From contig JAGORR010000001.1 in NCBI GenBank assembly GCA_018062765.1, positions 78,638 to 142,637 on the forward strand: DNA of 64,000 nt, read 5' to 3'. The DNA comes from Minisyncoccota bacterium (GTDB lineage Bacteria; Patescibacteriota; Minisyncoccia; Phycocordibacterales; Phycocordibacteraceae). Made by a program: the position numbers and the translations under genes. Shown here in pieces: positions 4,853 through 32,391 of this stretch (positions are counted from its first letter, which is position 1; every line of letters begins with the position of its first letter). Below the pieces are notes generated by a model, which was given only the letters and a program-made list of their open reading frames with translations, did not search any database and was not told the origin of the DNA.

Positions 4853-4858
4853 ACTAGA

Positions 4859-4893
4859 AGTAGCGTACAGGTGACAGCGTGCAGCGTACAGCA
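4859..4893. repeat. Tandem heptamer array, 5 units: AGTAGCG TACAGGT GACAGCG TGCAGCG TACAGCA. On the gene's sense strand this reads CTGTACG CTGCACG CTGTCAC CTGTACG.
   Basis: Read directly from the sequence. It ends 7 nt upstream of the virB4 C-part ATG. Confidence 0.7.
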
Positions 4894-4920
4894 AAAGCGG
4901 TGCAGGAGTGTTCAGTCTGG

Positions 4921-4941
4921 ACGCTAGCCGCTAGACGCTTC
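4921..4941. repeat. Tandem heptamer array, 3 units: ACGCTAG CCGCTAG ACGCTTC. It is in inverted orientation relative to the 4859-4893 array.
   Basis: Read directly from the sequence. It lies immediately after the stop of the VirB4 N-part ORF. Confidence 0.6.
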
Positions 4942-4944
4942 ATA

Positions 4945-5577: not shown

Positions 5578-5986
5578 GGTTTTCTTCCTGCGTGCGGTCC
5601 TTTATATCGAGGGACCATGCTAGGTCCCGAATCTTCGAGGACGACAGCCCGAGCTTCTGGCGGGCTTCTTCTGGGGCGACGACAGCTTTGGGTGCTTCTT
5701 GCGCCTTATCCTCCTTACGCCATACGTAGAGTTTCCCGCCAAACAGGTACGACACCTGTGCCTCGACAATCTCAACGAACGGCTTGTTGTTGACGCGATA
5801 GAACGCGAGGGCGCCAGAGAGTGCGCCGACGGGAAGTGCCACGATGAGGAACCCAATCATGGGAAGGTAGGCAAACGCGATGACGCAGATACCGATGCCT
5901 CCGGCAAGGTATATGAACTGCTTCAGCGTGAATGGTCCAAATATCTTCCCTTCCACTTCGAGAAACTGCGGTACTTGGTACTCCAT
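5567..5986 (-). CDS. PrgI/VirB3-like small T4SS membrane protein.
   Basis: N-terminus MEYQVPQFLEVEGKIFGPFTLKQFIYLAGGIG fits the PrgI-family pattern (VP..L....K.FG.T.KQ), followed by a TM hairpin. It sits in the canonical position upstream of virB4. Confidence 0.55.
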   Translation of the reverse strand: MEYQVPQFLEVEGKIFGPFTLKQFIYLAGGIGICVIAFAYLPMIGFLIVALPVGALSGALAFYRVNNKPFVEIVEAQVSYLFGGKLYVWRKEDKAQEAPKAVVAPEEARQKLGLSSSKIRDLAWSLDIKDRTQEENHGA

Positions 5987-6026
5987 CGCTCTATAGTATA
6001 CCGCCCGAGCGCCGAGTTTTGCGTGG

Positions 6027-6635
6027 TTATTGTGACGTACCCTCGTCTATGGGTTCACGATACGGGTCGCGAGCATAATTTTTTGGTACAGGAGCCGGAA
6101 GTGGCGCGATAGACGCAGGTGTTGTGACTTCACGCTCTGTTCGAGGGAGGCGGGGCTCGAAGACTGCTGGAGGTGTCACCGGCTCAGGGCGCGGCGCGGG
6201 AGGAGCAACAGGAGCAGAAGTTATCACAGGTGCAAGCGGCGCGGCTGGAGCGATTGGAGCAGTGGGTGGAGGAGTGGTGCCAAGAGGTGCAGGCACGTCG
6301 GTGAGTGGCGCGCGCGCAGGCTTCCCGGCCTCGCTCCGCATCTTCTCGTGGAGGGGCTTGAATATCGCGTCATTAAGTTCCTTGGCGATGAGAGAGGCTT
6401 TCAGATTAGATATGCCCATCTGCTCCATCTCCTGTATGAGCTGTGCAGGATTGATGAATCCGGACAACATAAGTCCAATGGACTCATCCAAGTCGCCTAC
6501 GACGTCTATGTGTAACTGGTACTTTGCACCTATGCGGCGCACTGCTGGCCCTAATTCACCGCTCGCGAGGTACTCACGAACAGAAAGAGGAAGACCGCGA
6601 TATGCCCGCAAAAGTTCTTCGTGTGGAATCTTCAT
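6027..6635 (-). CDS. Hypothetical protein with a Pro-rich C-terminal half (T4SS-like cluster).
   Basis: ORF with no TM segment. The C-terminal 90 aa are PAPxP-rich. Confidence 0.45.
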   Translation of the reverse strand: MKIPHEELLRAYRGLPLSVREYLASGELGPAVRRIGAKYQLHIDVVGDLDESIGLMLSGFINPAQLIQEMEQMGISNLKASLIAKELNDAIFKPLHEKMRSEAGKPARAPLTDVPAPLGTTPPPTAPIAPAAPLAPVITSAPVAPPAPRPEPVTPPAVFEPRLPRTEREVTTPASIAPLPAPVPKNYARDPYREPIDEGTSQ

Positions 6636-6641
6636 AGAGAG

Positions 6642-8933: not shown

Positions 8934-8938
8934 ATCGG

Positions 8939-10390
8939 TTAGCTTGTCGGGGTGCAGCGCAGGGAGGAGGTGCGCAGTTCCATATATAAGGAGGCTGGCG
9001 TGCCCTCTTCAGCTGCAAGTACCCCTGCTTCAGCAACCTCTGTGACAGAAGGGGTCGCAGGATTTGTCATGAGTGCTTGGAAGTCCTGGGCGACCGTTGC
9101 GACAGCGGTGGGATTCGCGCTCGTACGTGCCTCTAGGATTTCTGTGGTGATTGCCTGTAGCGCAGCGAGCGAGACGCCGACGCGCGCGAGTGCTGCATCC
9201 GCACGTGCTTTTGCGTCCGTTGCGCGCGCCTTCTCCTCATCCGTAGATTCATCGCAAGTAAGCGTTGACGATGCTACCGCCTCTATTTTCTGCCAATCCG
9301 TCTGATACGAAGCAAGGAGGGTTACTTGTCCCTGGATACCGCTTACAAGAAGCTCGTCGACAGATCCCCCGATAGGCGTTGTGGGAGGGGTGACCGGTGT
9401 CGGCGTCCCCGGTCTGTCTATATATCCTGAGCCGCCAGAGGATCGTGAGCCAATAGAAGAAAGTCCCTGAAGCGCCTGGCTTACAAGTTGGCTAACGAGC
9501 GCGTTCACGATCTCGTTTATCTCGTCAGCGACCTGGAGGCGCTGCTGCCCACCTGCCAAGGTCTCATTGAGCTGTTTTTCGATGACGGAACCTGGCGTCT
9601 CGATGGGGGCGTCGGCGCAGAATTCTTCCCCACCCAGATTGACCGCCGGCACAGGCGCGTTAATGCGGCCATCAGCGCCTGTTGTTGTCTGTCGGTCCCT
9701 GCACTCGCCGCGCCAAGACAGAAATCCGTTACCCCATCCGAGCTCCGTTATCCGCTTGTTAAGAGACGCTTCGATGCGGCGATTGAGCTCTTCTTTGGCA
9801 TTTAGATATGCGCCATGTGGGTTGTTTGCGCGATCTCCCGTGAGTGCGAACCACCCGTCCCAGCCGCCTTCGCTAAACCGACCGCGAGTGAACTCAAGAT
9901 CGTTCTCCACAGTGTCGCGAAGGGTGTACAGCTGCTCACGAAGGAACGCGTCGCCATTAGTCGAAAGGTAGTATCCGTACGCAACCGCCTCGACGGTACC
10001 CGAGAGCGGCGTGTCCATCATCTGATCGGCGAGCTGCCCGATGAATTCTGCGGCTACCGCGTCAGCGACCCCGCGCAGGTTCTGATTAAGGTCCTGGACG
10101 AAAGCCGGAGAGCCCTCGAAACCAGAGTTTATCCAATTGACGACGCTCCGCGACATCGACTCAAGGACGGTGTTCGCAAGCTGCCAAGCGACGCCGTCGA
10201 GGACCTGGTCGATATTGAGTTCTGCAGCATTTGTACCGAGAATGGCGTTTGTCGTTGCAAGGACTGCTTTATCGAGAACGAGCTGAACACCAAATTGTGC
10301 TTCAGCGCGTTGCGGTATTGCAAAGAGCGGCAGGATGAGCGCCAGCGTGAGCGCGGATGCGGTAGAACGATACAGGAGTGTACGCATCAT
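8939..10390 (-). CDS. Secreted hypothetical protein (T4SS-like cluster).
   Basis: Signal peptide ending in the AEAQF motif. A 483-aa ORF that overlaps its upstream neighbour by 4 nt. Confidence 0.5.
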   Translation of the reverse strand: MMRTLLYRSTASALTLALILPLFAIPQRAEAQFGVQLVLDKAVLATTNAILGTNAAELNIDQVLDGVAWQLANTVLESMSRSVVNWINSGFEGSPAFVQDLNQNLRGVADAVAAEFIGQLADQMMDTPLSGTVEAVAYGYYLSTNGDAFLREQLYTLRDTVENDLEFTRGRFSEGGWDGWFALTGDRANNPHGAYLNAKEELNRRIEASLNKRITELGWGNGFLSWRGECRDRQTTTGADGRINAPVPAVNLGGEEFCADAPIETPGSVIEKQLNETLAGGQQRLQVADEINEIVNALVSQLVSQALQGLSSIGSRSSGGSGYIDRPGTPTPVTPPTTPIGGSVDELLVSGIQGQVTLLASYQTDWQKIEAVASSTLTCDESTDEEKARATDAKARADAALARVGVSLAALQAITTEILEARTSANPTAVATVAQDFQALMTNPATPSVTEVAEAGVLAAEEGTPASLYMELRTSSLRCTPTS

Positions 10391-11364
10391 AGGCTGGTTG
10401 CAGAAAGGAGTGCGTAGAACCCGGCGCCGGCACCCGTTCGCGCAGCACCCGTTGCGTCGTACGCTTTCTTCACGGCTTTGAAGCCATCGATCATGCTGCG
10501 CGCATCCTTCTCATAATTTCCAAACCCAATCATCGCGCGCACAGGATCATCAGTGAGTGAAGCCATGTCCCCAATCGTCGCTCCGAGCCGTGCGATTGCG
10601 TTCGTAAGTGACTGATGTGCGCTCGTAAGTGCTATTGGCGCAGCGACCCCTCGGAGGCCTTCTGCTATCGCAACGTAATGGTCTCCTATCCGCTTTACCT
10701 GTGCGAGCGCATTCGTATCGCTCTTGAGCACTGCGTCGCTGAAATACGTAAGCTCGCTTTCCGGGAGCGAGAGCGCGTTCTTGGCAAATGCCTGCTCAGC
10801 CCCTGCAAGGTATGAGCTAGGGGTCGCTCCCTCGCTCGCTACGAAGTCGGCAACGACGTATGCGTCATCACGCGTCGCTTCGCGGCGGATTTCGTCAACC
10901 GCGCTTACGACGAACGAGCGCAGTGCCTCAGCGGTGAGTTTCTCCCCTCCCCCGGTAGTGACGTACGTCTCGAAGAACGTGAGCGCGAATTTCTCGGTGA
11001 GGGAACCTGGTGCCGGAGTTACCCCTGGCATGCTTGCGATGATGTCGCTTCCTATAGTGCCTTCGGGCGCCTCAATCGTGGGGCGCACGAGGCCCTGGGC
11101 AAGCGCCTCGCTATCCTTGATGTCGCTCCGTACCGAAGTAGCGTCCTCCGGGTCCATCCCATACAGGAGCTCCTGCCAGTCTGGAACGCCATCGGCATCC
11201 GTATCCTTCGCGGCGTATTCTTTAAGCACCTCCTCGGTCTCCTCTGCAGATAGCGTTGGCGTTGGTGGAGCGCCGTTTTGTATGTAGTAGGCGCCTCCGA
11301 TGAGCACAATCGCGATGAGCGATGCTCCTCCTACTATCCAGTGCGTTCGTGTGACAGCAATCAC
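10387..11364 (-). CDS. Membrane-anchored protein with an EF-hand-like Ca-binding loop. First gene of the T4SS-like operon.
   Basis: N-terminal TM segment (IVGGASLIAIVLIGGAYYI) and a DTDADGVPDWQE loop. Confidence 0.5.
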   Translation of the reverse strand: MIAVTRTHWIVGGASLIAIVLIGGAYYIQNGAPPTPTLSAEETEEVLKEYAAKDTDADGVPDWQELLYGMDPEDATSVRSDIKDSEALAQGLVRPTIEAPEGTIGSDIIASMPGVTPAPGSLTEKFALTFFETYVTTGGGEKLTAEALRSFVVSAVDEIRREATRDDAYVVADFVASEGATPSSYLAGAEQAFAKNALSLPESELTYFSDAVLKSDTNALAQVKRIGDHYVAIAEGLRGVAAPIALTSAHQSLTNAIARLGATIGDMASLTDDPVRAMIGFGNYEKDARSMIDGFKAVKKAYDATGAARTGAGAGFYALLSATSL

Positions 11365-11420
11365 GGCAGTTTCGCATTAATAGTATCACCGAAATCTCAC
11401 CATCCCCCCGAGAGCGGTGG

Positions 11421-12218
11421 CTACCGTTGTGAACTGCTTGCCGAATCGGTGAGCGCGCGAGCAAGATTCTTCCACGTATCGATGGAAAGCTCCTCGGCGC
11501 GGGCGTTTGGAGATATGGAAAGTGCAGTAAATGCTTGTAAGACGCTATCGGGTGGCAGGAGATCCTCGAGATTCTTTGCAAGCCTTTTGCGTTTATGTGC
11601 GAACCCGGTCCGCAAGACTTCAAAGAACGCCTTTTCTTCCTGAAGCGAGGCAAAGGGGCTCCTGATGTCCTTGATGTGGAGTACTGCGGAGTCAATGTTC
11701 GGTGCCGGAAGAAACGCGCCGCGCGGTACGGTGAAAAGATAGGAGGGCTCTCCGAAGGCGCGCACGGCGATTGAGAGAATGCTTCCCTTTTTGTCTCGGG
11801 CGACGCGCTCTGCGACCTCTTTCTGTACCAGGATGGTTACCGAAGCTGGCTTCGCTTGGGCTGAGAGGAATGTGCGGATAATCTCACCGGTGAGGTAGTA
11901 CGGAATATTGGCGACCAGGTGGTAGCGGTCATGGAGCGCGCTTGGTCCGAATTCTCGGATATCCGCATTGATGAGCTCGAGCCGTCGACCTTTGATTTCC
12001 CCGGCAAAACGCTCCGCGAGCGCCGGGATGAGCTCGCGATCTGCCTCGACCGCGATAACCTTCTTGGCGCGCGCCAAAAGCGGCGCGGTCAGCATGCCGG
12101 TCCCGGGACCTATCTCAAGTACGACATCATCCGCTCCTACGCCGGACTCGATAGCGATATGCTCCGCTATCTTCGCGTGCATGAGAAAGTTCTGCCCGAG
12201 TGATTTCTTAGCTTGCAT
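11421..12218 (-). CDS. rsmA: 16S rRNA (adenine1518/1519-N6) dimethyltransferase RsmA/KsgA.
   Basis: KKSLGQNFL N-terminus and LEIGPGTGMLT SAM motif. The start is trimmed from the ORF-track 12344 to the ATG at 12218. Confidence 0.85.
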   Translation of the reverse strand: MQAKKSLGQNFLMHAKIAEHIAIESGVGADDVVLEIGPGTGMLTAPLLARAKKVIAVEADRELIPALAERFAGEIKGRRLELINADIREFGPSALHDRYHLVANIPYYLTGEIIRTFLSAQAKPASVTILVQKEVAERVARDKKGSILSIAVRAFGEPSYLFTVPRGAFLPAPNIDSAVLHIKDIRSPFASLQEEKAFFEVLRTGFAHKRKRLAKNLEDLLPPDSVLQAFTALSISPNARAEELSIDTWKNLARALTDSASSSQR

Positions 12219-20652: not shown

Positions 20653-20919
20653 TTACTTCTTCAACCCGAGCTTTTTGACAATCGCGTTGTAGCGACGCTT
20701 GTCGTTTGCCTCAAGGTAGCGAAGATGCGAGCGACGATCAGCAACCATCTGAAGAAGTCCGCGACGCGAGTGTACGTCCTTATTGTTCTTCTTCAAGTGC
20801 TTCGTGAGGTCCTCGATACGACGCGTCAAAATAGCTACCTGTACGTCAGGTGAGCCTGTATCGCCTTCGTGCCGGGCGGCATTCTTCATGACTGCCGCCT
20901 TTTTCTTCGTAGTAAGCAT
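20653..20919 (-). CDS. rpsO: 30S ribosomal protein S15.
   Basis: GDTGSPDVQVAILTRRIEDLTKHLK...HSRRGLLQMV. Start trimmed to MLTTKKK. Confidence 0.9.
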   Translation of the reverse strand: MLTTKKKAAVMKNAARHEGDTGSPDVQVAILTRRIEDLTKHLKKNNKDVHSRRGLLQMVADRRSHLRYLEANDKRRYNAIVKKLGLKK

Positions 20920-21138
20920 GTGAACGTACCCTACCACATATTGACTATTCGCGCAAGGGTTATCTGGTGCGGAGTCGAGTCAAAACCGCGAACTGCTTTG
21001 TTGGGGAGGCCTCCCTGTTTTCTCCATCGTATGTATATACGACTACGAAAACCTCAGCTTCCCGCCGTGCATTTCATCGATGCTGAGCTCGCTCCGGTAA
21101 TTACAATATTTTCCGACGCTTGGTGGTACAATTTTTTT

Positions 21139-22035
21139 ATGGACGCACAGACGATGAAGCGGCAATTCCTCGAATATATCGAAATCGAGCGCGGCCGTTC
21201 GGTGAAGACGGTTGAGAACTACGACCGCTACCTCACTCGGTACCTGACGCAGATGAAGGTAGGCCAGGTAGGAGAGATTACGGAGGAAAGTATTCGCGAG
21301 TTCCGTATGTGGCTTAACCGCCAGCCCGGGACCGGCAAGGATTCGATGAAACGCCGCACGCAGAACTACTACCTTATTGCGCTCCGCGCCTTCCTGAAGT
21401 TCCTCCGCAAGCGCGGGGTCGAAAGCTCTTCCCCGGAACGTATCGAGCTTGCAAAGCTCCCCGAACGTCATCTGGACCTCATTACCTCAGCCGAGCTCGA
21501 TAGGCTCATGAAGGCAGCCGATGGCGACTCGGAGCGCTCGCTTCGTGATAAGGCCATCCTCGAGATGCTTTTCTCTACGGGTCTTCGCGTTTCAGAGCTG
21601 TGCGCACTCGATTCCGACCTCGACCTTACCCGGGACGAGCTCTCCGTGCGCGGCAAGGGAGACAAGGTACGCGTGGTATTCCTCTCCGAAGCTGCTAAAG
21701 ACGCCGTGAAGGCGTATCTAAAGGCTCGCAAGGACATGGGCGAGGCGCTTTTCGTGAATATCGCGAAGGGTCGTGAGCGGGGCGAGCGTCTCACTCCCCG
21801 TTCTATAGAGCGCACTATGAAAACGTATGCCGCGAAGGCGGGCATCACCAAGAAGGTCACTCCCCACGTGCTCCGACACTCGTTCGCGACCGATTTACTC
21901 TCGAATGGCGCTGATATTCGTTCTGTGCAGCAGCTTTTGGGGCATGCCTCTATCAATACGACGCAGATCTATACCCACGTCACCGACTCTCATCTGCGTG
22001 AGGTCCACAAAAAGTTCCACGGGCGTACGCGCTAG
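21139..22035 (+). CDS. xerC: Tyrosine recombinase XerC/XerD-like.
   Basis: Catalytic motifs R...HVLRHSFAT...LLGH...Y (IYTHV). The ORF-track start at 20869 is an upstream extension. Confidence 0.85.
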   Translation: MDAQTMKRQFLEYIEIERGRSVKTVENYDRYLTRYLTQMKVGQVGEITEESIREFRMWLNRQPGTGKDSMKRRTQNYYLIALRAFLKFLRKRGVESSSPERIELAKLPERHLDLITSAELDRLMKAADGDSERSLRDKAILEMLFSTGLRVSELCALDSDLDLTRDELSVRGKGDKVRVVFLSEAAKDAVKAYLKARKDMGEALFVNIAKGRERGERLTPRSIERTMKTYAAKAGITKKVTPHVLRHSFATDLLSNGADIRSVQQLLGHASINTTQIYTHVTDSHLREVHKKFHGRTR

Positions 22036-23269: not shown

Positions 23270-24733
23270 CTAGCAAACGTTGTGCTTCTCGAGGATGCGC
23301 CGTACTTCCAACTCCTCCTCAATCTCGCGACGTTTTTTGCCGGACTCCCCCATGTCCTTTAGCTCACTGTCCTTTAGAGCAAGTAATTCCCCTGCCCTAC
23401 TATCCATATACTCCTCCGTATTCTTCTCAGGATCGATAAGTACCTCCTCCAAGAGTGCATTTAAAGTCCACCCAATGCGCGGACCAGGTTCCACGTGAAA
23501 GCGGCTCATAAGACGTCTACCGTCAGTCTTAAGCATTGCTACGGATATCGGGTCGCGAAGCGCCTGTTCAACCATGGCCTTGTACTTACGGAAACGAAAA
23601 GGCTGCTCTTTAGGGCGGCCAGTACCTATGCGGTCACATATCCTAAGGTTCAACAGATCCCAAATATTCTCCTCCCCTACGTTCACAATCATCCGGCGGA
23701 CAGCGGACAGCGATATTTGGTCAGGGTCGGAGAAGAACATGTGCCAGCGTACTAGTTTCACAACTTTTGAGATAGTTTCCCGTGAAAACCGGAGGTCCTC
23801 TAGAGCTTTGCGTGTTACACGTGAACCAACTACCTCGTGTCCGTGGAAAGTCCAGTCCTGTTTCTCTTCGGACCAACGCCTAGTGTCTGGCTTAGCGATA
23901 TCGTGGAATAGGGCAGAAAGGCGTATATCGAAGCCCCATCCCTTGTCTGCGGCGTGCTGCATGCTTCGCATAAGATGCTCGAACACGTCGTAGCTGTGTG
24001 CCTGATTTTGCGCCACGCCGACGGACTGCGGCAAATCAGGAACTATATGTGGCAACAAACCGAGCTGCAGAGCCAAGGTGAATGCCATCATTGGCTGGTC
24101 AGACATGAGGATTCGGGTAAGTTCATCCCGAACCCTTTCACGTGAAATAGCCCCTAGATTGCTAGCTTTTTCGCTTATTGCAGCCGCAGTTTCGCCATCT
24201 AGGACAAATCCAAGCTCTGCGACGAGGCGTATAGCCCGCATAAGGCGCAGTCCGTCTTCCTCAAATCGGATGCTAGGTACTCCTACGGCCCGGAGAACCT
24301 TGGCTTTCAGGTCTACTTGTCCTTTATAGGGGTCTACGATGTGTCCTTTAGAGTCGTCCAGGGCTATGGCGTTCACGGTGAAGTCCCGGCGAGCGAGGTC
24401 ATCCTCGAGGCTCTCGCCGAATATGACTTCGTCCGGCCGGCGCTTATCGGAGTACCCGGTCTCGGTTCGATATGGGGTCACCTCGACAACTGCCGTTGTC
24501 TCGTCCTCAGACCCGGTCTTTACCCCGACTGTCCCGAACTCGTTTTCGTAAAAGGAGTCGGGGAAGACTCTTTGGATGTCTCCTGGCTTTGCGTTGGTGG
24601 TGACATCCCAATCCTTGGGCTTTCGATTGAGCAATAGATCACGTACACAGCCGCCCACCAGGTAGGCCTCGAAGCCTGCATTGCGCAAGTCCCCGGCGAC
24701 CTTCTCTACTACGTTTGGAATAGGGAAGTGCAT
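23270..24733 (-). CDS. cca: CCA-adding enzyme / poly(A) polymerase-family nucleotidyltransferase with an HD domain.
   Basis: GGCVRDLLLNRKPKDWDVTT nucleotidyltransferase motif, plus HD-domain residues downstream. Confidence 0.8.
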   Translation of the reverse strand: MHFPIPNVVEKVAGDLRNAGFEAYLVGGCVRDLLLNRKPKDWDVTTNAKPGDIQRVFPDSFYENEFGTVGVKTGSEDETTAVVEVTPYRTETGYSDKRRPDEVIFGESLEDDLARRDFTVNAIALDDSKGHIVDPYKGQVDLKAKVLRAVGVPSIRFEEDGLRLMRAIRLVAELGFVLDGETAAAISEKASNLGAISRERVRDELTRILMSDQPMMAFTLALQLGLLPHIVPDLPQSVGVAQNQAHSYDVFEHLMRSMQHAADKGWGFDIRLSALFHDIAKPDTRRWSEEKQDWTFHGHEVVGSRVTRKALEDLRFSRETISKVVKLVRWHMFFSDPDQISLSAVRRMIVNVGEENIWDLLNLRICDRIGTGRPKEQPFRFRKYKAMVEQALRDPISVAMLKTDGRRLMSRFHVEPGPRIGWTLNALLEEVLIDPEKNTEEYMDSRAGELLALKDSELKDMGESGKKRREIEEELEVRRILEKHNVC

Positions 24734-25462
24734 AACAATATTCTACGGCATGACCTAGCGCGCTTCCTAAATGAATTATATGATTGTGTGTATAGAACTA
24801 TGAAAGAGAAAGTTCAGCATAAGAAATACGCGACTGATTTGCGACTAGCAGGGAGCACCTATTCGGAGATACTCGCGCAAGTCCCTGTTTCGCGTGGCAC
24901 ATTATCAGCGTGGCTTAGTGATGTTCCTCTACCGGAGAACGTGGTAAAGCACCTCTCCGCCAATCGGCGAGCGAGGGTCAGTCAGGCAAGAAGAAGGGAA
25001 GCGACGGTCCGGAAAGCGGCAGCGATAGTTCGCCGCGGATTCGCTGAAAAAGGTGCAAAAAAGGAATTCGAAAGACACTCGAAGGAACCCTTTTTCCTGG
25101 CCGGTCTCGGTCTTTATCTTGGTGGCGGGACCTTTGGGAAGGCATCCTTCTCGTACATGTCCGGGGAGGAGCGCCAGATAGCGCTAATGGTCCGCTGGGC
25201 TAAGGAATACCTTGCCCACGAGAGTCGTATAGCGCTCCGACTCTATCTGCCGCCCTCCATGGACCTCGGATCTGCCCGTGTGCACTGGTCCAAGGCCACC
25301 GGGCTCCCTGCAGCAGCCTTCAAGAAGGCGGTGATGACGAAGGAAAGGGCCAGAAAACCTAGTAATTACGCGGGTATTGCCCGATTGGAGCTTACGGGTG
25401 GCAGGGCAGCGCTTCGTGTGCGCGTGTGGCTGGATATGCTTGTTGTGCGCTATGCGGAATAA
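24728..25462 (+). CDS. Hypothetical protein with an N-terminal HTH-like motif.
   Basis: STYSEILAQVPVSRGTLSAWL resembles a sigma-70-region-4/terminase-type HTH. It ends 18 nt before tRNA-Arg. The true start may be an internal ATG. Confidence 0.4.
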   Translation: MHNNILRHDLARFLNELYDCVYRTMKEKVQHKKYATDLRLAGSTYSEILAQVPVSRGTLSAWLSDVPLPENVVKHLSANRRARVSQARRREATVRKAAAIVRRGFAEKGAKKEFERHSKEPFFLAGLGLYLGGGTFGKASFSYMSGEERQIALMVRWAKEYLAHESRIALRLYLPPSMDLGSARVHWSKATGLPAAAFKKAVMTKERARKPSNYAGIARLELTGGRAALRVRVWLDMLVVRYAE

Positions 25463-25480
25463 AGCTAGTGTTTACCTCAG

Positions 25481-25552
25481 GCTCCGATAGTGAAATGGAT
25501 ATCACATCAGTCTTCGGAACTGACGTTCCAGGTTCGAATCCTGGTCGGAGCA
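25481..25552 (+). tRNA. tRNA-Arg (anticodon TCG), no encoded CCA.
   Basis: Cloverleaf read manually: acceptor GCTCCGA/TCGGAGC, anticodon stem TCAGT/ACTGA, loop CTTCGGA, T-arm CCAGG TTCGAAT CCTGG. Confidence 0.85.
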
Positions 25553-25726
25553 CAGAAAGCAGCAAACCCGAGCTTACGCTTGGGTTTGCTGCTTTCTGGC
25601 TCAAGGCCAGGATTCGAAAGACGGAGTCGGTATACAAGCGAGCGAAGCGAGGCTTGAGACGATGAAAGCTGCCGGGGGTCGCTTTCATGGGTCGCGGAAA
25701 TCCCGCGTAGAGGGATTATCCGTGAC

Positions 25727-25746
25727 CGAATCCTGGTCGGAGCACA
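25727..25746 (+). repeat. 20-nt direct repeat of the tRNA-Arg 3' end (CGAATCCTGGTCGGAGCACA). The first copy is 25535-25554.
   Basis: Exact 20/20 match. It is preceded by GTGAC and is not part of a foldable tRNA. Confidence 0.75.
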
Positions 25747-25792
25747 CTAAGAATTGAAGAAAAGGCATAGCTATGGGAATATAGAGCCCGTA

Positions 25793-25863
25793 GCGGCTAT
25801 GGTTTAGTGGTAGAACGCGTCCTTGCCAAGGACGAGTCGGGAGTTCGATTCTCCCTAGCCGCA
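25793..25863 (+). tRNA. tRNA-Gly (anticodon GCC), no encoded CCA.
   Basis: Acceptor GCGGCTA/TAGCCGC, anticodon stem CGTCC/GGACG, loop TTGCCAA, T-arm GGGAG TTCGATT CTCCC. Confidence 0.85.
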
Positions 25864-25970
25864 CTAAGAAAAGCGAAGCTTTGCGTGTACAGACGAGGGA
25901 GGATCGAAGGCCGGAGCGCGGCGGCGCGAGGCGAGGTCGCGGCCATTTTCAGAAGAAAATGAGCTGTGAC

Positions 25971-25989
25971 CGATTCTCCCTAGCCGCAC
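25971..25989 (+). repeat. 19-nt direct repeat of the tRNA-Gly 3' end (CGATTCTCCCTAGCCGCAC). The first copy is 25846-25864.
   Basis: Exact match, again preceded by GTGAC. Confidence 0.75.
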
Positions 25990-25996
25990 CAGAGCG

Positions 25997-26025
25997 AAAA
26001 GCGCCCGGAAGGGCGCTTTTCGTTT
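25997..26025 (+). terminator. Rho-independent terminator (GCGCCC ggaa GGGCGC followed by a T-run) closing the tRNA locus.
   Basis: Hairpin plus TTTTCGTTT. Confidence 0.55.
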
Positions 26026-26085
26026 ATAGACAATAGGGGATAACTACCTACCTCTCCCTTGAACGCATAATTTCTAGGCCATTTC

Positions 26086-26114
26086 TTGGTGTTGACTTCA
26101 TGAAATGGTATAAT
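26086..26114 (+). promoter_or_regulatory. Sigma-70-like promoter with an extended -10 (TTGGTG-17-TGgTATAAT). An alternative -35 TTGACT sits 11 nt upstream.
   Basis: TGGTATAAT at 26106-26114. There is no ORF with a plausible start downstream for about 600 nt. Confidence 0.45.
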
Positions 26115-26552
26115 CCTAGAGCCTCGCAAGGGGTGGCAGGTATGGTCAGGTATCGGGACGAAAGTCGTTGCGTAAGCACAGCTCTAGTGGTCGGTACTTG
26201 TAAGGTCGAAAGACCTCGAGTACCTGCCAGTGGAGCTGTTTTCGTGGGCCCGCGGAACCAGTTTGAGCCCTCCACGGGTTAGCGATGAACCTGCACCTCG
26301 AATTTCGCGGTGTCGCTGGTCGACAAGATACCAGCATCGTAATCTTGGTCAAAACATGACTAAGACGATTACGAGGAGCGCGAAGACAGGTCGCTTCGTA
26401 CCGGCAAGGCAGGCGATCACTCGCCCCGCTACGACGGTACGGGAGACAATCTTCGTCCCTCGCAAAAAGAAGTAAGCCCCCTAGCTAAACGCTAGAGAGC
26501 TTGCTTCGTAAGGAAGCAAAAGCGCTCACAGCAGGTGTGGGTGCTTTTGCTT

Positions 26553-26578
26553 AAGGACATGGTACCACAGGTGTCCTT
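26553..26578. repeat. Inverted repeat AAGGACA-N12-TGTCCTT (a TAAAGGACA-family motif).
   Basis: Read directly. Same core as the 22847-22921 and 28497-28509 copies. Confidence 0.55.
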
Positions 26579-26759
26579 TAGACCACCAACCACACCGATA
26601 GGCAGGGGATAATCATGTAATTTATCCCTAGAAAGCATAATCGATTGAATAAAATCAAAGGATCTCAGGAATATTATCGGCTTATGCAAGGCACATTTTA
26701 TCGCTGTCCACACCTGCATTGTACGTTCACGGAATAAGGTGTAGCGTTGAAGTAAAGAT

Positions 26760-27371
26760 ATGAAGCGGTACGCATTTATAGATGTCGAAAATACGGCCAC
26801 GACAGCCGAAGATATGCTTGGCTTTGTCGTTGATTGGTCAAAAGTGGCTGATTTCCTCAAGAATGTGAAAAGTTGTACAGAAGTGTTCTACTACACGGCT
26901 ATAGAGACTGGTGATGCCCAGAAGGCGGCAGAGTTCGAGGCGATCGATAAAACTGCCTGCTGCGTTGTTAGGGCGAAACAAAAGATGCTCTATAAGCGTA
27001 AGGACAAGTATCTTTCTTTCACGTGCTCAAAGTGCGGGGAACCCGGCAATAAAAGCATTGACATGGGGTACAACGTCAAAGGTAACTGCGATGTTGAATT
27101 AACGGTGGATGCTCTCGAGCATGGAGAGAAAGATAACGAATTTTACATATTCACGGGCGACGGTGATTTCGAGTACCTAGCTATAAAGCTTATGGAGCGG
27201 GGCGTTAAGGTCGTGTTTGTTTCTCACGCAAAAGTGATTCAGAGGGCTGGTCAGCCCTATGGACGGTATTCAAAAAAGCTTAGAGATCTTGTTGCTGCCA
27301 ACCCGACCCACCTCTCTTTCCAAGAACTAGATAATTGGAAGAAGAAATTTGAGCGCGTAATTGTGCCGTAA
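26760..27371 (+). CDS. NYN-domain protein with an inserted Cys4 zinc ribbon, in a lower-GC context.
   Basis: MKRYAFIDVEN N-terminus, TGDGDFEYLAIKL motif and CSKCG...C insert. AT-richer codon usage than the surrounding genes. Confidence 0.65.
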   Translation: MKRYAFIDVENTATTAEDMLGFVVDWSKVADFLKNVKSCTEVFYYTAIETGDAQKAAEFEAIDKTACCVVRAKQKMLYKRKDKYLSFTCSKCGEPGNKSIDMGYNVKGNCDVELTVDALEHGEKDNEFYIFTGDGDFEYLAIKLMERGVKVVFVSHAKVIQRAGQPYGRYSKKLRDLVAANPTHLSFQELDNWKKKFERVIVP

Positions 27372-27562
27372 ATACGCCGTATAAATACGAAAACGCCGCG
27401 AAGCGCGGCGCCTTCTAAGGACTCCCTCAGTATACTCAGGACCCATGAGGTGTCAATTAAGGGTCAAGGGGTCTTTCTAATAACCTGTTGATAGCTGATT
27501 TAAGAAGAATTTAAGATAGTTTCAAGTATAATTTTCACAAATGGATCAACCCGAGTTTCTTT

Positions 27563-28450
27563 CTATACTTTCGAGAGCAATACGGTTCCGAGGAGCGCAG
27601 AAAACCGCTGACTGTCGCTGTGTCGGTTGTTCCAATGGAACGAATACGCATCTAGATACCCCTGAAGGTGTCGCTTCGACACCACCTTATACGTCCCCCG
27701 AAGAGAGCGCTTCACGTGCGCCCAATACGCCTCAATAGTGTTTATGTAGATTGGGCCTCGCGCCCATTCTTTCTTTGAGTGATTCACCATGTATCGCTCG
27801 TAGCCTATAGCTACATTGTCTAGGGTCTTAGTAGCGTCAGTCATGAGCGCGGTGCCTTCCTCCTCAACGTTTTCCCGAAGAAACCGGCCGTGGGTATCTG
27901 CGCCTATGTCGGGTACGACCTTGGTGCGTACCTCGCCGTTTCGCTGTACCGCGCCTATAACCGGGGACTTAGCCCTAATGTTCCTGCTCTGGTGCATATT
28001 GTCCTTCCCGCCGTCACCCTTGCCGCCCATATAGGTGCTATCCACCTCGACAACCCCCGACAGCTTCTTGGGAGTCTGTTTCCCGAGGGATTCGCGGATC
28101 AGTTTCAGCATTCGCCACGCCGTCTTATAGGTCACTTCAAGCTGTCGCTCCATCTCCTTAGCTGAAATGCCGCTCTTGGCGTTAGAAAAGACCCACAGGG
28201 CATGGAACCAGAGGGAAAGGGGAGTATCTGACTTATGGAAGATCGTGCCTGCTGTAGGGGCTATCTGGAACCTACACTTGGAGCATTGATACTGTTTCCG
28301 GCCTGAAATGCGCCTGTAGGTACCACCACAGGAGCACTCCCGGCTGTGGAGGGAATCGAAAATGAAGTCCAGACAGACCGCGTCGGTCGGGAAATCACGT
28401 TTTAGGGAAGATAGGCCGTATTTACTCATTATTCTCACTCTATCGGACAT
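27563..28450 (-). mobile_element. IS1595-family (ISXO2-like) DDE transposase gene.
   Basis: N-terminal zinc ribbon (CSCGG...CSKC), HTH and a DDE domain with the typical IS1595 C-terminus. Lower GC. No convincing terminal inverted repeats were located. Confidence 0.75.
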
Positions 28451-28496
28451 GGATTATGTTGTCAAGGGATATCGGGGGATAACTAAGGGGACATGT

Positions 28497-28509
28497 GGAT
28501 AAAGGACAG
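28497..28509. repeat. GGATAAAGGACAG copy of the TAAAGGACA motif.
   Basis: Identical 13-mer to 22909-22921. It lies just outside the transposase start. Confidence 0.55.
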
Positions 28510-28577
28510 CGTCCAAGATGAACGGATTATGATGAGTCTTAAGAAAAGCTAGTAAATAAGCCGTTTTTCTAAACTCC

Positions 28578-28973
28578 ATGAATCTCGAGAAGGCCACAAA
28601 GAAGGAAATCGGTGATTATGGTGAAAGGGCCGTCGTCCGAGAGCTCGAGAGGAATGGCTACAGGCTAGTTGGTAGGAATATCGCACGAAAGACAGGAGAA
28701 ATAGACGTGCTAATGCGAAAGAGCGATACCCTCCACTTTATCGAAGTTAAGGCGCTCTCATGTGAGGAGTTGCCGGATCTTGAAGCGGTAAACGATCGCT
28801 ATGACCCCTCTGCAAACCTTCATGAGGCGAAGGTACGAAAAGTCGCCCGGACAGCTGAGTGGATAGTCGCAGAAAAGGAGTGGGAAGGGGATTGGCAGGT
28901 TGATGGCGCCCTAGTATGGCTCCGGCTGCGCGATGGAGTCGCCAAGGTCCTCCATCTGCCGCAAATCGTCTAG
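28578..28973 (+). CDS. yraN: YraN/UPF0102-family predicted endonuclease.
   Basis: GDYGERAVVRELERNGYRLVGRN...GEIDVLMRK...FIEVKA. Confidence 0.7.
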   Translation: MNLEKATKKEIGDYGERAVVRELERNGYRLVGRNIARKTGEIDVLMRKSDTLHFIEVKALSCEELPDLEAVNDRYDPSANLHEAKVRKVARTAEWIVAEKEWEGDWQVDGALVWLRLRDGVAKVLHLPQIV

Positions 28974-29074
28974 CAATGCTAGGATGGCCCATATAGGACG
29001 TTGGCCTATGTGTATGGGCGGTGAGCTAGGGTCATTATGTGCCGGAGTAGCTTGGGTGGGTTAAATCATTTGGT

Positions 29075-29148
29075 CGGGCCGTCGTATACCGGTAGTACGC
29101 TTGGTTTGGGACCAAGATGACCGGGTTCGATTCCCGGCGGCCCGACCA
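29075..29148 (+). tRNA. tRNA-Pro (anticodon TGG) with encoded CCA.
   Basis: Acceptor CGGGCCG/CGGCCCG, D-arm GTAT/GTAC, anticodon stem CTTGG/CCAAG, loop TTTGGGA, T-arm CCGGG TTCGATT CCCGG, then ACCA. Flanked by the inverted repeat 29061-29081 / 29138-29158. Confidence 0.85.
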
Positions 29149-29305
29149 AATGATTTAACGGCTCTCTGGGAGAGAGCCAAGGTCCGGAGGAAAGATGACC
29201 GGGACGACCCCTTACAGGGGCGGTATACCTTTCGGATATTTTGCATCGCAAGCTCGCAAATTATCTCGAAAGGTCTTGCGAACGCTCCAAGCATTCGCGT
29301 TCTCA

Positions 29306-29324
29306 CCCGGCGGCCCGACCAAAT
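29306..29324 (+). repeat. 19-nt direct repeat of the tRNA-Pro 3' end (CCCGGCGGCCCGACCAAAT). The first copy is 29133-29151.
   Basis: Exact match 173 nt downstream, followed by a T-run. Confidence 0.75.
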
Positions 29325-29383
29325 TTTTCGTGATGCGCACTGAATCGATTCTCCGGGGGAGAACCGTATGACTGGGTTAATGC

Positions 29384-29411
29384 AAAAAAGATCCGCGAAC
29401 GGATCTTTTTT
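29384..29411. terminator. Bidirectional terminator (A-run, GATCCG cgaa CGGATC, T-run).
   Basis: Perfect hairpin with symmetrical A and T tracts. Confidence 0.6.
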
Positions 29412-29434
29412 GCAATTGTAATTCCAGCGGTCCC

Positions 29435-30484
29435 CTAATCACTCGTCGCTTCAATAAGTATCTCCCGCAACGCTTTCGCCCTCGCCGCAAACGCATCTGC
29501 AAGATTCGGAAGTGGCGCGCTTAGGAGGTATTGCGAAAGACTCATGCCAGCGTCGAGCTCGAAGTTCTTCCTGATATGACGAGGTGTGATGGCGCGCACT
29601 TGGCGAGATGAGAGATCTGCTTCCGCCGAGCTTGTGGTGATGAGTCCGACCATTTCCCCGGAAAGCGAAGCGACAGCACCCCCCGAAGAACCTTCCTGCG
29701 CCGTATCGCTTCCAGACACTGACAGCAAATCGATAGTATTCTCGCCAAACGTATAAACCTTCTCAATCTCTCCGCCATCAACAATGAGTGGTAATGCATT
29801 CTGGATGAGTTCGCTCCCAGCAAACTCAGCGCCGTACGCTGCGAGTACTACGGTGTCGCCTGTGCGTGCATCCGTATCAGCAAGTGGAAGTGAAGGAAAT
29901 GAGGAGGGAAGTGGTGTGCCAGAAATTGTTCCGGTGATGTACAGGAGCGCAAAATCACTCTCACCGGTCCCAGTTGGTGCTGCGTCTGAAAGAGTCGCTT
30001 GATTAGCGGTTATCCAGTGCGTCGATACGTACAGGGGATCTGCCGTGTATGTCGCAACAGCAGGACTTCCAACTCGTACAGAACAACGAATGCTATTTGG
30101 TTTCGGATAATCGCGCAGGATAAAGTACTGTCCGATGTGAGCGGCGGTAAGGATGACACCGCGCGAATCGATGAAGACGCCGCTTCCAGAAATTGATTTG
30201 AATGGACTACCGTCCGTCGTGCAGAGAATATTCACCGCAGCATTTCCGGCAAGTCGAACCGCAGCGTCCAATTTTCGCGTATCCAGAGGTGCGCCCGCGT
30301 CTGCGACTGCTGCGGGCTGCGGAGGAGCTTCGATCAGTGTTGCGCCAGGAAGTGTCGTAGTCGCGAGTGGCGTCGCTTCCTCTATGACGATAGTCGTTGG
30401 AGAGCGAAAACCTGTGGTTGCTATGGCGATAACAGCAAACGCAAGGAGGCCTGCGCCCGCGTAGGAGATCCAGTCACGCTTCAT
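29435..30484 (-). CDS. Trypsin-like (S1) serine protease, membrane anchored.
   Basis: N-terminal TM segment. TAAHI (His), GDTVVLAAYG and a GSSGGAV-type Ser motif. Confidence 0.65.
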   Translation of the reverse strand: MKRDWISYAGAGLLAFAVIAIATTGFRSPTTIVIEEATPLATTTLPGATLIEAPPQPAAVADAGAPLDTRKLDAAVRLAGNAAVNILCTTDGSPFKSISGSGVFIDSRGVILTAAHIGQYFILRDYPKPNSIRCSVRVGSPAVATYTADPLYVSTHWITANQATLSDAAPTGTGESDFALLYITGTISGTPLPSSFPSLPLADTDARTGDTVVLAAYGAEFAGSELIQNALPLIVDGGEIEKVYTFGENTIDLLSVSGSDTAQEGSSGGAVASLSGEMVGLITTSSAEADLSSRQVRAITPRHIRKNFELDAGMSLSQYLLSAPLPNLADAFAARAKALREILIEATSD

Positions 30485-30485
30485 G

Positions 30486-30556
30486 TGCGGGATAGGAGAA
30501 TCGAACTCCTGCTAGCAGTTTGGAAAACTGCAGTTCTACCATTAAACTAATCCCGC
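30486..30556 (-). tRNA. tRNA-Gly (anticodon TCC), no encoded CCA.
   Basis: The reverse complement folds with acceptor GCGGGAT/ATCCCGC, anticodon stem GCAGT/ACTGC, loop TTTCCAA and T-arm AGGAG TTCGATT CTCCT. Confidence 0.8.
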
Positions 30557-30642
30557 GTTCTTCGCCGCTACGATACCATTTTGACGGCAACCGCGCATCG
30601 GTCCCGGTATCGAGCTGGTCCCCCGTGCGTTATGCTTTCATC

Positions 30643-30915
30643 ATGATTCCTGATCCCCTCCACCACCTAGAGCGCACCACCGAGCGTATGAATGAGTTCA
30701 TGCACGCAAGGCATCATACGGCCTTCAGCAAATACCCACTCCTGTTTGCCTTGCTAGGCGCTTTTGGCGTTGTTGCCGTCATGTATGGGCTCGAGAACAT
30801 GCTCGGCCAGATACGGGTTGTTAAAGAGTATCCGGTACTTTCGTTCCTCGCGGGCGTAGCAATCCTCCTTTTCACTGGGTCGTTGTATAAGCGTATCGAT
30901 AAGAAGCTCGATTAA
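30643..30915 (+). CDS. Small membrane protein (2 TM), hypothetical.
   Basis: The ORF-track start at 30520 (TTG) lies inside the minus-strand tRNA. Start is trimmed to the internal ATG (MIPDPLHH...). Confidence 0.35.
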   Translation: MIPDPLHHLERTTERMNEFMHARHHTAFSKYPLLFALLGAFGVVAVMYGLENMLGQIRVVKEYPVLSFLAGVAILLFTGSLYKRIDKKLD

Positions 30916-30984
30916 CCCCGATTCACTCTTTCTCCATATCTGTGCTATAGAATGCGGTTAGGTATTACCGGCTAGTTTTCTCAT

Positions 30985-32391
30985 ATGACCATCACTTCCA
31001 ACCTCAAAAGGGCGGCAGGCTTTGCGCTCGTCCTCGGGCTCGTGCTCTCCTCTGGTGCCGTCATAGGCGCCAAGGGCGTAGAAGCTGCTTCCTGCTCCTT
31101 TTCCCGAGACCTCTACATAGGCGTCTCGTGGGGAGAGGATGTGCGTTGTCTCCAGGGCACGCTCTCCTCTATGGGCTACTACGTACCCCAGACGGGGACC
31201 TATGGCAATGAGACGGCCATCGCCGTCGCTCGCTGGCAGGCCACCAAGGGTATTAGCCTCGCAAATGGGGTATTTGGCCCTGTCTCCCGTTCCGCTATGG
31301 GTGGCTACTCGGGCACCCCGACCTACCCAGGTACCTCATGGCAGGACAACGACTCAGACGAGGCATACCGAGCCATTTTGGACGCGGTCGCGGCTTACGT
31401 GGACGCCCTGGACGAGTTCCGGGACGCTGAGGACGATAACGACCGCACGGGGGACGCTGAGGACCTTCTTGAGGACGCCCTCGATGAGATACGCGACGCA
31501 CTCCAGTCCTTCATCCGTCATGACTTCGATGACGCGATAGATGCCGCCGAGGAAGCAGAGGACCTCGCAGACGAGGCGATGGACGAAATAGATGGAGATC
31601 GCGATGACGATAACGACAACGACCGCGAAGACGCCGAGGATGCCATCGATGAGGCGTGGGACGCTATCGATGAGGCCGAGGATGAGATAGAGAACGCAGA
31701 CGACCGCGGCGACGATGTCGATGAGGCCGAAGAGCTTCTTGATGACGCCTGGGATGCCATCAATGATGCTGAAGAGGCATACGATGACCGCGATTACGAT
31801 GACGCAGTCGACTACGCGCGGGACGCGGAGGACCTCGCCAAGGACGCAATCGATGCTATCGACGAGGATCGTAACGATTACGACGACGACGATGCAGCCG
31901 ACGCACTCGATGACGCGAACGACGCTATCAATGACGCATGGGACGAAGTTGATGATGCGCGCCGCGATGGCGACGATGTCGACCGCGCCGAGGACCTCCT
32001 TGATGACGCAGAGAACCGTTACGATGATGCGATCGAAGCGTTCGATGATGAGGATTGGGATGATGCGGTCGAGTTTGCGCATGACGCTGAGGACCTCGCG
32101 CATGACGCAGTTGATGCCATCGACGAAGACGACAACGATGGTGATCGGCAAGACGCGATCGACGAAATAAATGATGCGTACGACATAATCCGTGATGCGC
32201 AGGATGAGATTGAGGATGCGGACGACGATGGCGCGGATGTCGACGAGGCGGAGGATCTCTTGCAGGATGCGGTAGACGCATACAACGATGCCGTCGAAGC
32301 GTTTGAAGATCACGACTACGACGATGCTATCGATCTTGCTGAGGAAGCTCAGGATCTTGCCGACGACGCGGTAGACGCAATTGGCTACTAA
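30985..32391 (+). CDS. Exported protein with a PG_binding_1-like domain followed by about 330 aa of hyper-acidic degenerate repeats (D/E/A plus periodic I/L/Y/W).
   Basis: Signal peptide. DLYIGVSWGEDVRCLQGTL...WQATKGISLANGVFGP matches the peptidoglycan-binding fold consensus. The rest is about 45% Asp+Glu in about 50-aa repeat units. Confidence 0.7.
   Translation: MTITSNLKRAAGFALVLGLVLSSGAVIGAKGVEAASCSFSRDLYIGVSWGEDVRCLQGTLSSMGYYVPQTGTYGNETAIAVARWQATKGISLANGVFGPVSRSAMGGYSGTPTYPGTSWQDNDSDEAYRAILDAVAAYVDALDEFRDAEDDNDRTGDAEDLLEDALDEIRDALQSFIRHDFDDAIDAAEEAEDLADEAMDEIDGDRDDDNDNDREDAEDAIDEAWDAIDEAEDEIENADDRGDDVDEAEELLDDAWDAINDAEEAYDDRDYDDAVDYARDAEDLAKDAIDAIDEDRNDYDDDDAADALDDANDAINDAWDEVDDARRDGDDVDRAEDLLDDAENRYDDAIEAFDDEDWDDAVEFAHDAEDLAHDAVDAIDEDDNDGDRQDAIDEINDAYDIIRDAQDEIEDADDDGADVDEAEDLLQDAVDAYNDAVEAFEDHDYDDAIDLAEEAQDLADDAVDAIGY

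Follow-up and report, generated by a model that had tools for sequence, protein, structure and literature searches.

A tRNA-Pro gene of a Patescibacteria genome with an extended acceptor helix and a downstream copy of its 3' end: an apparent counterpart of the tRNA-linked repeats of Escherichia coli

In a 64,000-nucleotide (nt) stretch of the genome of a Minisyncoccota bacterium (contig JAGORR010000001.1), which we call the window, a tRNA-Pro gene is enclosed by a long leader/trailer helix and followed by a trailer that ends in an exact copy of the last nucleotides of the tRNA. Our preferred explanation, to which we give about an even chance, is that the trailer is a co-transcribed RNA that would be processed by mimicking a tRNA, with the leader/trailer helix acting as a processing stalk. 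The tRNA-Arg and tRNA-Gly(gcc) genes of the window are followed by elements built on the same principle but of a widespread kind, which we call class A.

We compared the window, whose genome is Paceibacteria/Kaiserbacteria-like, with 80 Patescibacteria genome loci labelled Paceibacteria, Kaiserbacteria or Parcubacteria (codes L001-L080). The anchor of these loci was the gene for the CCA-adding enzyme (23270-24733), which adjoins tRNA-Arg; syntenic relatives are 71-79% identical, and the same four tRNAs are found beside the CCA-adding enzyme gene in related loci. The tRNA genes were called with ARAGORN and Rfam (Table 1), tRNA-Pro scoring 58.7 bits in Rfam. Nothing credible beyond the four tRNAs was found in an Rfam search (cmscan, E up to 10) of positions 24500-31500.

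That leader and trailer extend the acceptor stem of tRNA-Pro was part of the original prediction, made from the letters of the window, and it is borne out. The inverted repeat (arms at 29060-29084 and 29135-29159) is 25 nt long and 96% complementary. Its helix comprises 22 base pairs (bp): seven belong to the acceptor stem, and the other 15 join 29060-29074 to 29145-29159, so that even A73 and the encoded CCA are paired. An acceptor extension of 14-15 bp is present at tRNA-Pro in the window and in L001, L003, L004, L021, L048 and L050 (interrupted in the last), and at none of the other tRNAs. Over 14 positions in these seven genomes we counted 84 Watson-Crick pairs, 13 G·U pairs, no A·C pair and one other combination; several pair types occur at 11 of the 14 positions. 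Because G·U pairs are tolerated and A·C pairs are not, and because the arms covary, the leader/trailer helix is an RNA helix on the tRNA strand. By this pattern of substitution it is kept by selection and acts at the RNA level. It is probably a processing stem, and its 22 bp, about two turns, would be the size of a substrate for a double-strand-specific RNase.

The second feature of the locus is the duplicate of the tRNA 3' end. It had been predicted 173 nt downstream, and it is indeed an exact 19-nt direct repeat, CCCGGCGGCCCGACCAAAT, at 29133-29151 and 29306-29324 (start-to-start distance 173); a run of five T follows at 29324-29328. The copy extends into the trailer arm (AAT), which identifies this gene as its source. 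Two other tRNAs of the window show the same kind of repeat: tRNA-Arg with 20 nt (25535-25554 and 25727-25746) and tRNA-Gly(gcc) with 19 nt (25846-25864 and 25971-25989). No 3'-end copy accompanies tRNA-Gly(tcc), a gene that abuts an open reading frame (ORF). By our own estimate an exact 19-mer repeated within 300 nt is expected by chance about 1e-4 times per 64 kb; a chance origin of the repeats is excluded. We also observed that the tRNA-Gly(gcc) gene itself has no encoded CCA (GCAC-TAAG, 25846-25867), yet its copy reads GCACCA (25971-25992), and that the reverse occurs in other genomes.

The pattern, described in the original prediction as systematic at three of the four tRNAs of the window, extends in fact across a bacterial lineage and many tRNA species. 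We searched for the last 16 nt of each tRNA, with at most 2 mismatches, 60-310 nt downstream of all 283 tRNAs in the window and the 80 loci. A copy was found downstream of 41 of the 283 and upstream of none, and a probe from the tRNA 5' end was repeated on neither side. This strict directionality (41 versus 0) supports our preferred explanation. Occupancy at orthologous tRNAs is patchy: all four tRNAs carry an element in L071 and three of four in L080 and in the window, and many genomes have none. Tandem element copies are found in L064 and L071. Two 19-nt direct repeats would allow an element to be lost cleanly and leave the tRNA intact, which fits this patchy presence among relatives.

The trailer of tRNA-Pro (29149-29324) lies directly behind the tRNA on the same strand, and a terminator follows only at 29381-29414. 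Between the tRNA and the 19-nt copy lie two hairpins, a second exact repeat that the earlier reading of the window had missed, and a long insert. The second repeat, AAGATGACCGGG, comprises the variable loop and the 5' strand of the T stem (29114-29125 and 29192-29203). Five genomes (the window, L003, L004, L048 and L064) share this module in the same order, which again supports our preferred explanation. The module is free of an insert in L003, L048 and L064; L004 has a 28-nt insert in the same place, which shares CG-ACCCC-YUAC-GGGG-UAUACC with that of the window. Hairpin 1 has homologues with compensating stems in L004, L048 and L064, and its loop type, YUGGGAR, recurs in the elements of class A and of a further class, B, described below. 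Hairpin 2 has counterparts in an alignment read by eye (UCC/GGA in L003, CCCC/GGGG in L048, CCC/GGG in L064), and it is not formed in the minimum-free-energy fold of the window itself. We read the stems of both hairpins as changing compensatingly across these genomes. The original prediction suggested folding the segment after tRNA-Pro: positions 29160-29327 fold better than shuffled sequences (z = -3.9), with CCGGG (29199-29203) pairing with 29306-29310, although the other strand does so too, as discussed below. The closing pairing in this fold consists of the 5-bp T stem and GGUC/GACC only. A stable RNA with a tRNA-like 3' end, which the prediction had also raised, is plausible here as a putative product of the trailer.

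Is the downstream copy the remainder of a second tRNA-Pro gene? This possibility, already considered in the original prediction, stands in part. A colinear copy of the variable loop and T stem is present, as is an anticodon-like hairpin; a D arm is not, and neither ARAGORN nor Rfam calls a tRNA at the Pro trailer. There is also no intact 5' strand of an acceptor stem, only a vestigial GGUCCGG. Because the 12-nt copy and the anticodon-like hairpin lie upstream of the 19-nt copy and are colinear with the tRNA, the 19-nt copy is the end of a truncated unit derived from tRNA-Pro. Judged by its parts, the Pro element is a truncated tRNA-Pro copy in which an insert replaces the T loop. The tRNA-derived parts agree with the live tRNA in the window, L004 and L064; in L003 and L048 they stem from another tRNA-Pro allele than the live gene. 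Upstream of the tRNA there may be a remnant of another unit, which ends exactly where the helix arm starts. In the window its local alignment (CCGG-AGTA-GCTTGG against tRNA positions 15-30) is weak (p ~0.055). In L003 and L048 a remnant in the same place is clear, with a score reached by none of 200 shuffles, and in the leader of L004 10 nt of the tRNA 5' end are repeated exactly. With a 5'-half remnant upstream, an intact tRNA and a truncated copy downstream, the Pro locus looks like an old array of tRNA-Pro units of which only the middle one is intact. R1, a covariance model that we built from class A elements, has no match at 29149-29330, and by its sequence the Pro element is a lineage-specific, tRNA-Pro-derived member and not class A. 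At this locus in L025 a tRNA-Pro(GGG) gene (8714-8786) stands where others have tRNA-Pro(UGG), with a UGG copy 3.6 kb away. The GGG gene is at the syntenic place, and the locus has exchanged tRNA-Pro genes during evolution.

An array of this kind could simply be evolutionary debris. The trailer would then consist of functionless fragments of duplicated or replaced tRNA-Pro copies and a junk insert, and recent duplication or gene conversion would account for the identity with the live tRNA. The exact and colinear 12-nt and 19-nt copies, AAT included, are what one would expect under this explanation, as are the 5'-half remnants upstream (in L003, L048 and weakly in the window), the origin of the downstream fragment from a different tRNA-Pro allele in L003 and L048, the uniqueness of the 102-nt insert among the fetched loci and the second tRNA-Pro(GGG) at the syntenic place in a relative. 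However, debris should not keep its module order and compensating hairpins in five diverged genomes. The leader/trailer helix is clearly under selection, and in the parallel class A elements conservation is far above that of synonymous sites. We therefore think that decay is an unlikely explanation of the Pro trailer, but one that deserves serious weight.

The original prediction saw the same architecture at tRNA-Pro, tRNA-Arg and tRNA-Gly. Put in this way, the claim is not supported: R1 finds a homologous, covarying core at Arg and Gly (25605-25745, 35 bits, and 25895-25989, 95.5 bits) and not at Pro. Class A elements consist of a spacer, often a hairpin flanked by A/T runs, a 5' arm, a core and a sense copy of the tRNA end. 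The 5' arm is complementary to the T loop, the 3' strands of the T stem and the acceptor stem and the next two bases. The closing helix is formed by this antisense copy (tRNA positions 54-74) and the sense copy (about 56-74) of the neighbouring tRNA, and it encloses a three-way junction with near-invariant strings (..CGAARGCCGGA.., GAGGCGGGGUCGCGG and CYGUGACCGA). In an alignment of 21 copies, 17 of the 25 consensus pairs show compensatory changes; in 31 copies aligned by the model, 93.6% of cells are paired and double changes occur at 19 of the 25 pairs. In 500 shuffles these values were never reached; slid controls stayed at 38-52%. This covariation of the class A core is a further point in support of our preferred explanation. 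One G·U pair of the core is kept in 28 of the 31 copies, and all 40 tabulated R1 matches in the window and its relatives lie on the tRNA strand, 38 of them 8-105 nt behind a same-strand tRNA. The conserved G·U pair, together with the fixed orientation, speaks for an RNA of the same strand as the tRNA. Between genomes, the interiors of class A elements are 0.84-0.89 identical where the third codon positions of the adjacent CCA-enzyme gene are 0.40-0.66 identical, which argues for selection or transfer and against neutral debris. To judge from these comparisons and from the decayed copies mentioned below, both selection and turnover are visible in class A. A second type of core, class B (..GACCUUGCGAGC..CCGCAAGGUGUACUGA..GUAAG..), stands behind tRNA-Arg in L035, L045, L051, L053, L061, L062, L071 and L074. 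It sits between an antisense arm and a sense copy, as the class A core does, and a GUAAUC hairpin is common to both.

The 5' arm could in principle be the decayed 5' half of a duplicated tRNA. We rejected this idea. Among 27 positions at which the acceptor or T stem of the tRNA has a G·U pair or a mismatch, the arm shows the Watson-Crick complement of the 3' strand at 20 and the tRNA's own 5' base at only 4. The arm is also antisense to T loops that are not palindromic (ATTTGAA for TTCAAAT; also ACTTGAA, AGTTGAA and TTTCGAA). Both arms must thus have been matched to each tRNA by other means than a decayed duplicate.

A templated arm is also what one would expect of a selfish duplicative element that copies the 3' third of its target tRNA in both orientations, for example by reverse transcription of the tRNA end or by template switching at a quasi-palindrome; what is seen at tRNA-Pro would then be an ancient insertion that has degenerated. 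Besides the templated arm (20/27 complement, antisense T loops, no decayed tRNA 5' half), several observations suit such an element. Its presence at orthologous tRNAs is patchy and clustered by genome (L071 with four of four; L080 and the window with three of four), and there are tandem copies in L064 and L071. Two copies stand alone: L001 6679-6795 and L024 4383-4506 have no same-strand tRNA closer than 874 and 2428 nt, respectively. The former is chimeric, with an antisense arm and spacer of Gly(gcc) type and a 3' copy of Gly(tcc) type, and hence recombinant. Copy boundaries lie at RNA landmarks, the T loop and the mature 3' end. Core sub-variants follow neither tRNA identity nor genome consistently, although gene conversion among resident elements could also yield this incongruence. 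Yet no reverse transcriptase, transposase or dedicated recombinase is associated with the elements. The only recombinase nearby, of Xer type (20869-22035), keeps its syntenic place in 67 of 81 sequences; among these are 46 of the 54 that lack elements, so that it is present with or without them. For the Pro element, moreover, the variable-loop copy is in sense orientation and an antisense arm is missing. Taken together, a selfish origin seems improbable to us.

A direct repeat of the 3' part of a tRNA downstream of the intact gene also resembles the attL and attR ends of an integrated island. The Pro trailer would then be a scar, the duplicated tRNA 3' segment of an integrase island whose interior has since been deleted. 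Williams in 2002 reportedly described T-loop-type integration sites with a direct repeat from the T arm to the tRNA 3' end, and the repeat here spans this very interval. One could add that the downstream Gly copy carries a CCA and the gene does not. On the other hand, only 157 nt separate the Pro copies, and they hold no gene: three ORFs that overlap the Pro element, rejected as coding, have no Pfam match and overlap the tRNA. Nor is there a dedicated integrase nearby. The elements keep the same small size at dozens of tRNAs (110-300 nt between copies), with no genes or integrase and with a conserved, RNA-type folded core and an antisense arm that would be unexpected at an att site. We regard an integration scar as very improbable.

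Class A elements are not confined to the 80 loci. We drew a further 80 loci from metagenomes with a strict class A core pattern. R1 finds 95 elements in these loci, of which 66 lie at most 300 nt behind a same-strand tRNA (13 amino-acid identities), 22 have no detected tRNA within 300 nt and 7 cannot be judged, as the contig end is too near upstream. A same-strand tRNA lies at most 400 nt upstream of 49 pattern matches; in 29 of these the element closes with at least 14 nt copied from the end of that particular tRNA (at most 1 mismatch). A viral origin was considered and rejected: a core pattern of two 8-mers, which was too loose, gave at least 120 stretches in viral contigs, and among the matches listed none of the 80 viral loci obtained fits R1. 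On one metagenome contig (L276, Ga0075868_11; 2338-11621) a span of 12 kb holds five class A elements, distributed over both strands, which indicates that some genomes carry many copies.

How would the tRNA-Pro locus work under our preferred explanation? A promoter near 28980 would give rise to a single transcript of leader, tRNA and trailer, which would end at the terminator (29381-29414). Its likely -10 element, TAGGAT, is found 8-9 nt before tRNA-Pro in the leaderless relatives L005, L006 and L010; a generic sigma-70 scan found no promoter in the TAGGAT region. The terminators behind the copies, at 25995-26022 for Gly and 29381-29414 for Pro, are consistent with co-transcription. A double-strand-specific RNase of the RNase III type might then cut the 22-bp helix and free the pre-tRNA for RNase P and 3' trimming. 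The trailer RNA would close by pairing of its T stem (29199-29203 with 29306-29310), by analogy with E. coli RrB and with tRNA-minihelix substrates. Since the last 19 nt of the trailer are those of the tRNA, the same 3'-end machinery would define its end.

Several points weigh against this scenario. First, the minus strand folds as stably as the plus strand (z of -4.7 versus -3.9). Second, the 102-nt insert has no other homologue in a blastn-short search of 160 fetched loci. Third, without a good acceptor 5' strand the tRNA mimicry of the Pro element would be incomplete. Fourth, several class A copies are decayed at the 3' end or internally deleted (L049 Pro, L035, L008, L019), so not every copy is maintained. 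Finally, generic mimicry of a tRNA end needs no identity with the neighbouring tRNA; the identity points to a copying process.

Table 1. Features of the tRNA loci in the window, in order of position.
Feature	Position	Strand	Basis
tRNA-Arg(tcg)	25481-25553	+	ARAGORN, Rfam
tRNA-Arg class A element: spacer hairpin 25555-25596, antisense arm 25598-25618, core, copy 25727-25746	25555-25746	+	
tRNA-Gly(gcc)	25793-25864	+	ARAGORN, Rfam
tRNA-Gly(GCC) class A element: spacer, antisense arm 25895-25908, minimal three-way-junction core, copy 25971-25989	25865-25989	+	
Terminator after Gly(gcc) element	25995-26022		
TAGGAT, likely -10 element of the tRNA-Pro promoter, 89 nt before the tRNA	28980-28985	+	inferred
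Possible decayed tRNA-Pro 5'-half remnant: 3' side of D arm, 5' strand of anticodon stem, start of anticodon loop	29042-29060	+	
Helix 5' arm GTTAAATCATTTGGT	29060-29074	+	inverted repeat, covariation
tRNA-Pro(UGG), encoded CCA	29075-29148	+	ARAGORN, Rfam
Helix 3' arm ACCAAATGATTTAAC, overlaps A73 and CCA	29145-29159	+	inverted repeat, fold, covariation
Hairpin 1 (GGCUCUC-UGGGA-GAGAGCC), 7-nt anticodon-like loop CUGGGAG	29160-29178	+	minimum-free-energy folds
Hairpin 2 (UCC-GGA-GGA)	29183-29191	+	alignment reading; short
Exact copy of variable loop and T-stem 5' strand AAGATGACCGGG	29192-29203	+	repeat finder
102-nt hairpin-rich insert replacing the T loop	29204-29305	+	fold
19-nt copy: T-stem 3' strand, acceptor 3' strand, A73, CCA, AAT of trailer arm	29306-29324	+	
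Hairpin like that of an intrinsic terminator, between A and T runs; the transcription unit probably ends here	29381-29414	+	
tRNA-Gly(tcc)	30485-30556	-	ARAGORN, Rfam

The surroundings of these genes deserve a few remarks. Directly upstream of tRNA-Pro lies a gene for a YraN-family (UPF0102) endonuclease-like protein (28578-28973). YraN stands beside tRNA-Pro in 24 of 24 complete loci with tRNA-linked elements and in 16 of 37 without; shared clade membership probably explains this association. The interval from the tRNA-Gly element to the YraN gene holds an ORF with an NYN domain (26760-27371) and, on the minus strand, an IS1595-family transposase gene (27563-28450). In a tblastn search of the 81 sequences the former was found in the window only and the latter in the window and one other locus, and the stretch 26760-28450 looks like a recent insertion. 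Finally, at 26094-26250 a promoter-like sequence (TTGACT..TGGTATAAT) precedes about 130 nt with a good fold (z = -4.9) and a T run at the end. This stretch, for which Rfam gives no match, may be an unannotated small RNA.

Parts of the elements resemble systems that are well known. Like the RNase III stalks of rRNA operons, the Pro helix is a leader/trailer helix of at least 20 bp that encloses a mature RNA, here with covarying arms. It differs from them in enclosing a single tRNA and in pairing the discriminator base and the CCA. In class A the 5' arm is perfectly complementary to the last ~21 nt of a specific tRNA and ends in the T loop, which recalls the primer-binding site of retroviruses and long terminal repeat (LTR) retrotransposons. 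This is a resemblance only, since class A has neither a reverse transcriptase nor an LTR and does have a sense copy; the Pro element is not comparable. Group I introns are known from Patescibacteria tRNA genes, at anticodon-loop positions (PMC13011429). We rejected an intron here, as Rfam gives no intron match and the element, too small for one, is not inside the live tRNA. Two other candidates were also dropped, a permuted transfer-messenger RNA at 29121-29207 (a sub-threshold Rfam match of 19 bits, E 0.9) and a likeness of GGUCCGGAGGAA, seen by eye, to helix 8 of the signal recognition particle RNA, which Rfam does not support.

The closest parallel is offered by the tRNA-linked repeats (TLRs) of E. 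coli, which Rfam lists as RtT RNA. According to PMC8144298, which cites Egan and Landy 1978 and Rudd 1999 on this point, TLRs have been known in E. coli since 1978. Their defining feature is a 3' end that matches the tRNA or rRNA gene before it over 18-19 bp. They occur in 22 copies and are mostly without known function; rrA/B/F bind Hfq and CsrA (PMC8144298). The Pro trailer is placed as they are, behind a tRNA on the same strand and before a terminator, and its 3'-end identity is 19 of 19, next to 20 nt for Arg and 19 nt for Gly. Tandem copies occur among E. coli TLRs and Patescibacteria elements alike. In E. coli tyrT/tyrV there are three units of 178 nt, each of which ends in a 19-nt tRNA-Tyr copy paired with an upstream GGGGAAGGAU arm. 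A closing helix made of an antisense arm and a tRNA-derived 3' end is thus found in the tyrT/tyrV units, in the Rfam RtT consensus and in the class A elements at Arg and Gly, and RtT and class A can be said to have the same design.

Shared design does not mean shared sequence. The RtT model (RF00391) has no match in 24500-31500 (cmscan, E up to 10), whereas the E. coli units reach 133-138 bits with it; with R1, RtT reaches 7 bits. By these models there is no detectable homology between class A and RtT. The three-way-junction core is peculiar to class A, which belongs to another phylum and is found behind tRNAs of at least 13 amino-acid identities. The Pro element differs from RtT in its sense copy of the variable loop, the insert in its T loop and the lack of a full antisense arm. 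Of 70 Patescibacteria elements, 26 contain a short motif, GAGYG-N2-4-YGAR, where shuffles lead one to expect 2.5. Each RtT unit of the E. coli K-12 tyrT-tyrV region (L321) has it once, and it is possibly a loop motif shared by both groups of elements.

We found no description of such elements in Patescibacteria in the literature, and they are apparently the undescribed counterpart of the E. coli TLRs. The elements and the extended acceptor helix merit annotation, as they may otherwise be mistaken for integration scars, pseudo-tRNAs or small ORFs. They also provide a large comparative data set for working out what TLRs do, and they raise the mechanistic question of how both arms come to match each new tRNA. 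One could go further and argue, if only tentatively and with the balance on the side of doubt, that the elements of Patescibacteria and enterobacteria form one general and so far unrecognised class of TLR/RtT type, whose closing helix is templated anew on the tRNA it follows. Such a class would involve a tRNA-templated copying step, either reverse transcription of a tRNA end or template switching at a quasi-palindrome. Alternatively, the match would serve a tRNA-specific antisense function; the element might, for example, sense or sequester the 3' end of its cognate tRNA, or guide its cleavage. All three elements of the window (Pro, Arg and Gly) would belong to this class and represent different stages of decay. 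That the TLR design of E. coli, in which an antisense arm closes a structured element whose 3' end repeats the last 14-20 nt of the neighbouring tRNA, recurs in a distant, genome-reduced phylum indicates that the phenomenon is general.

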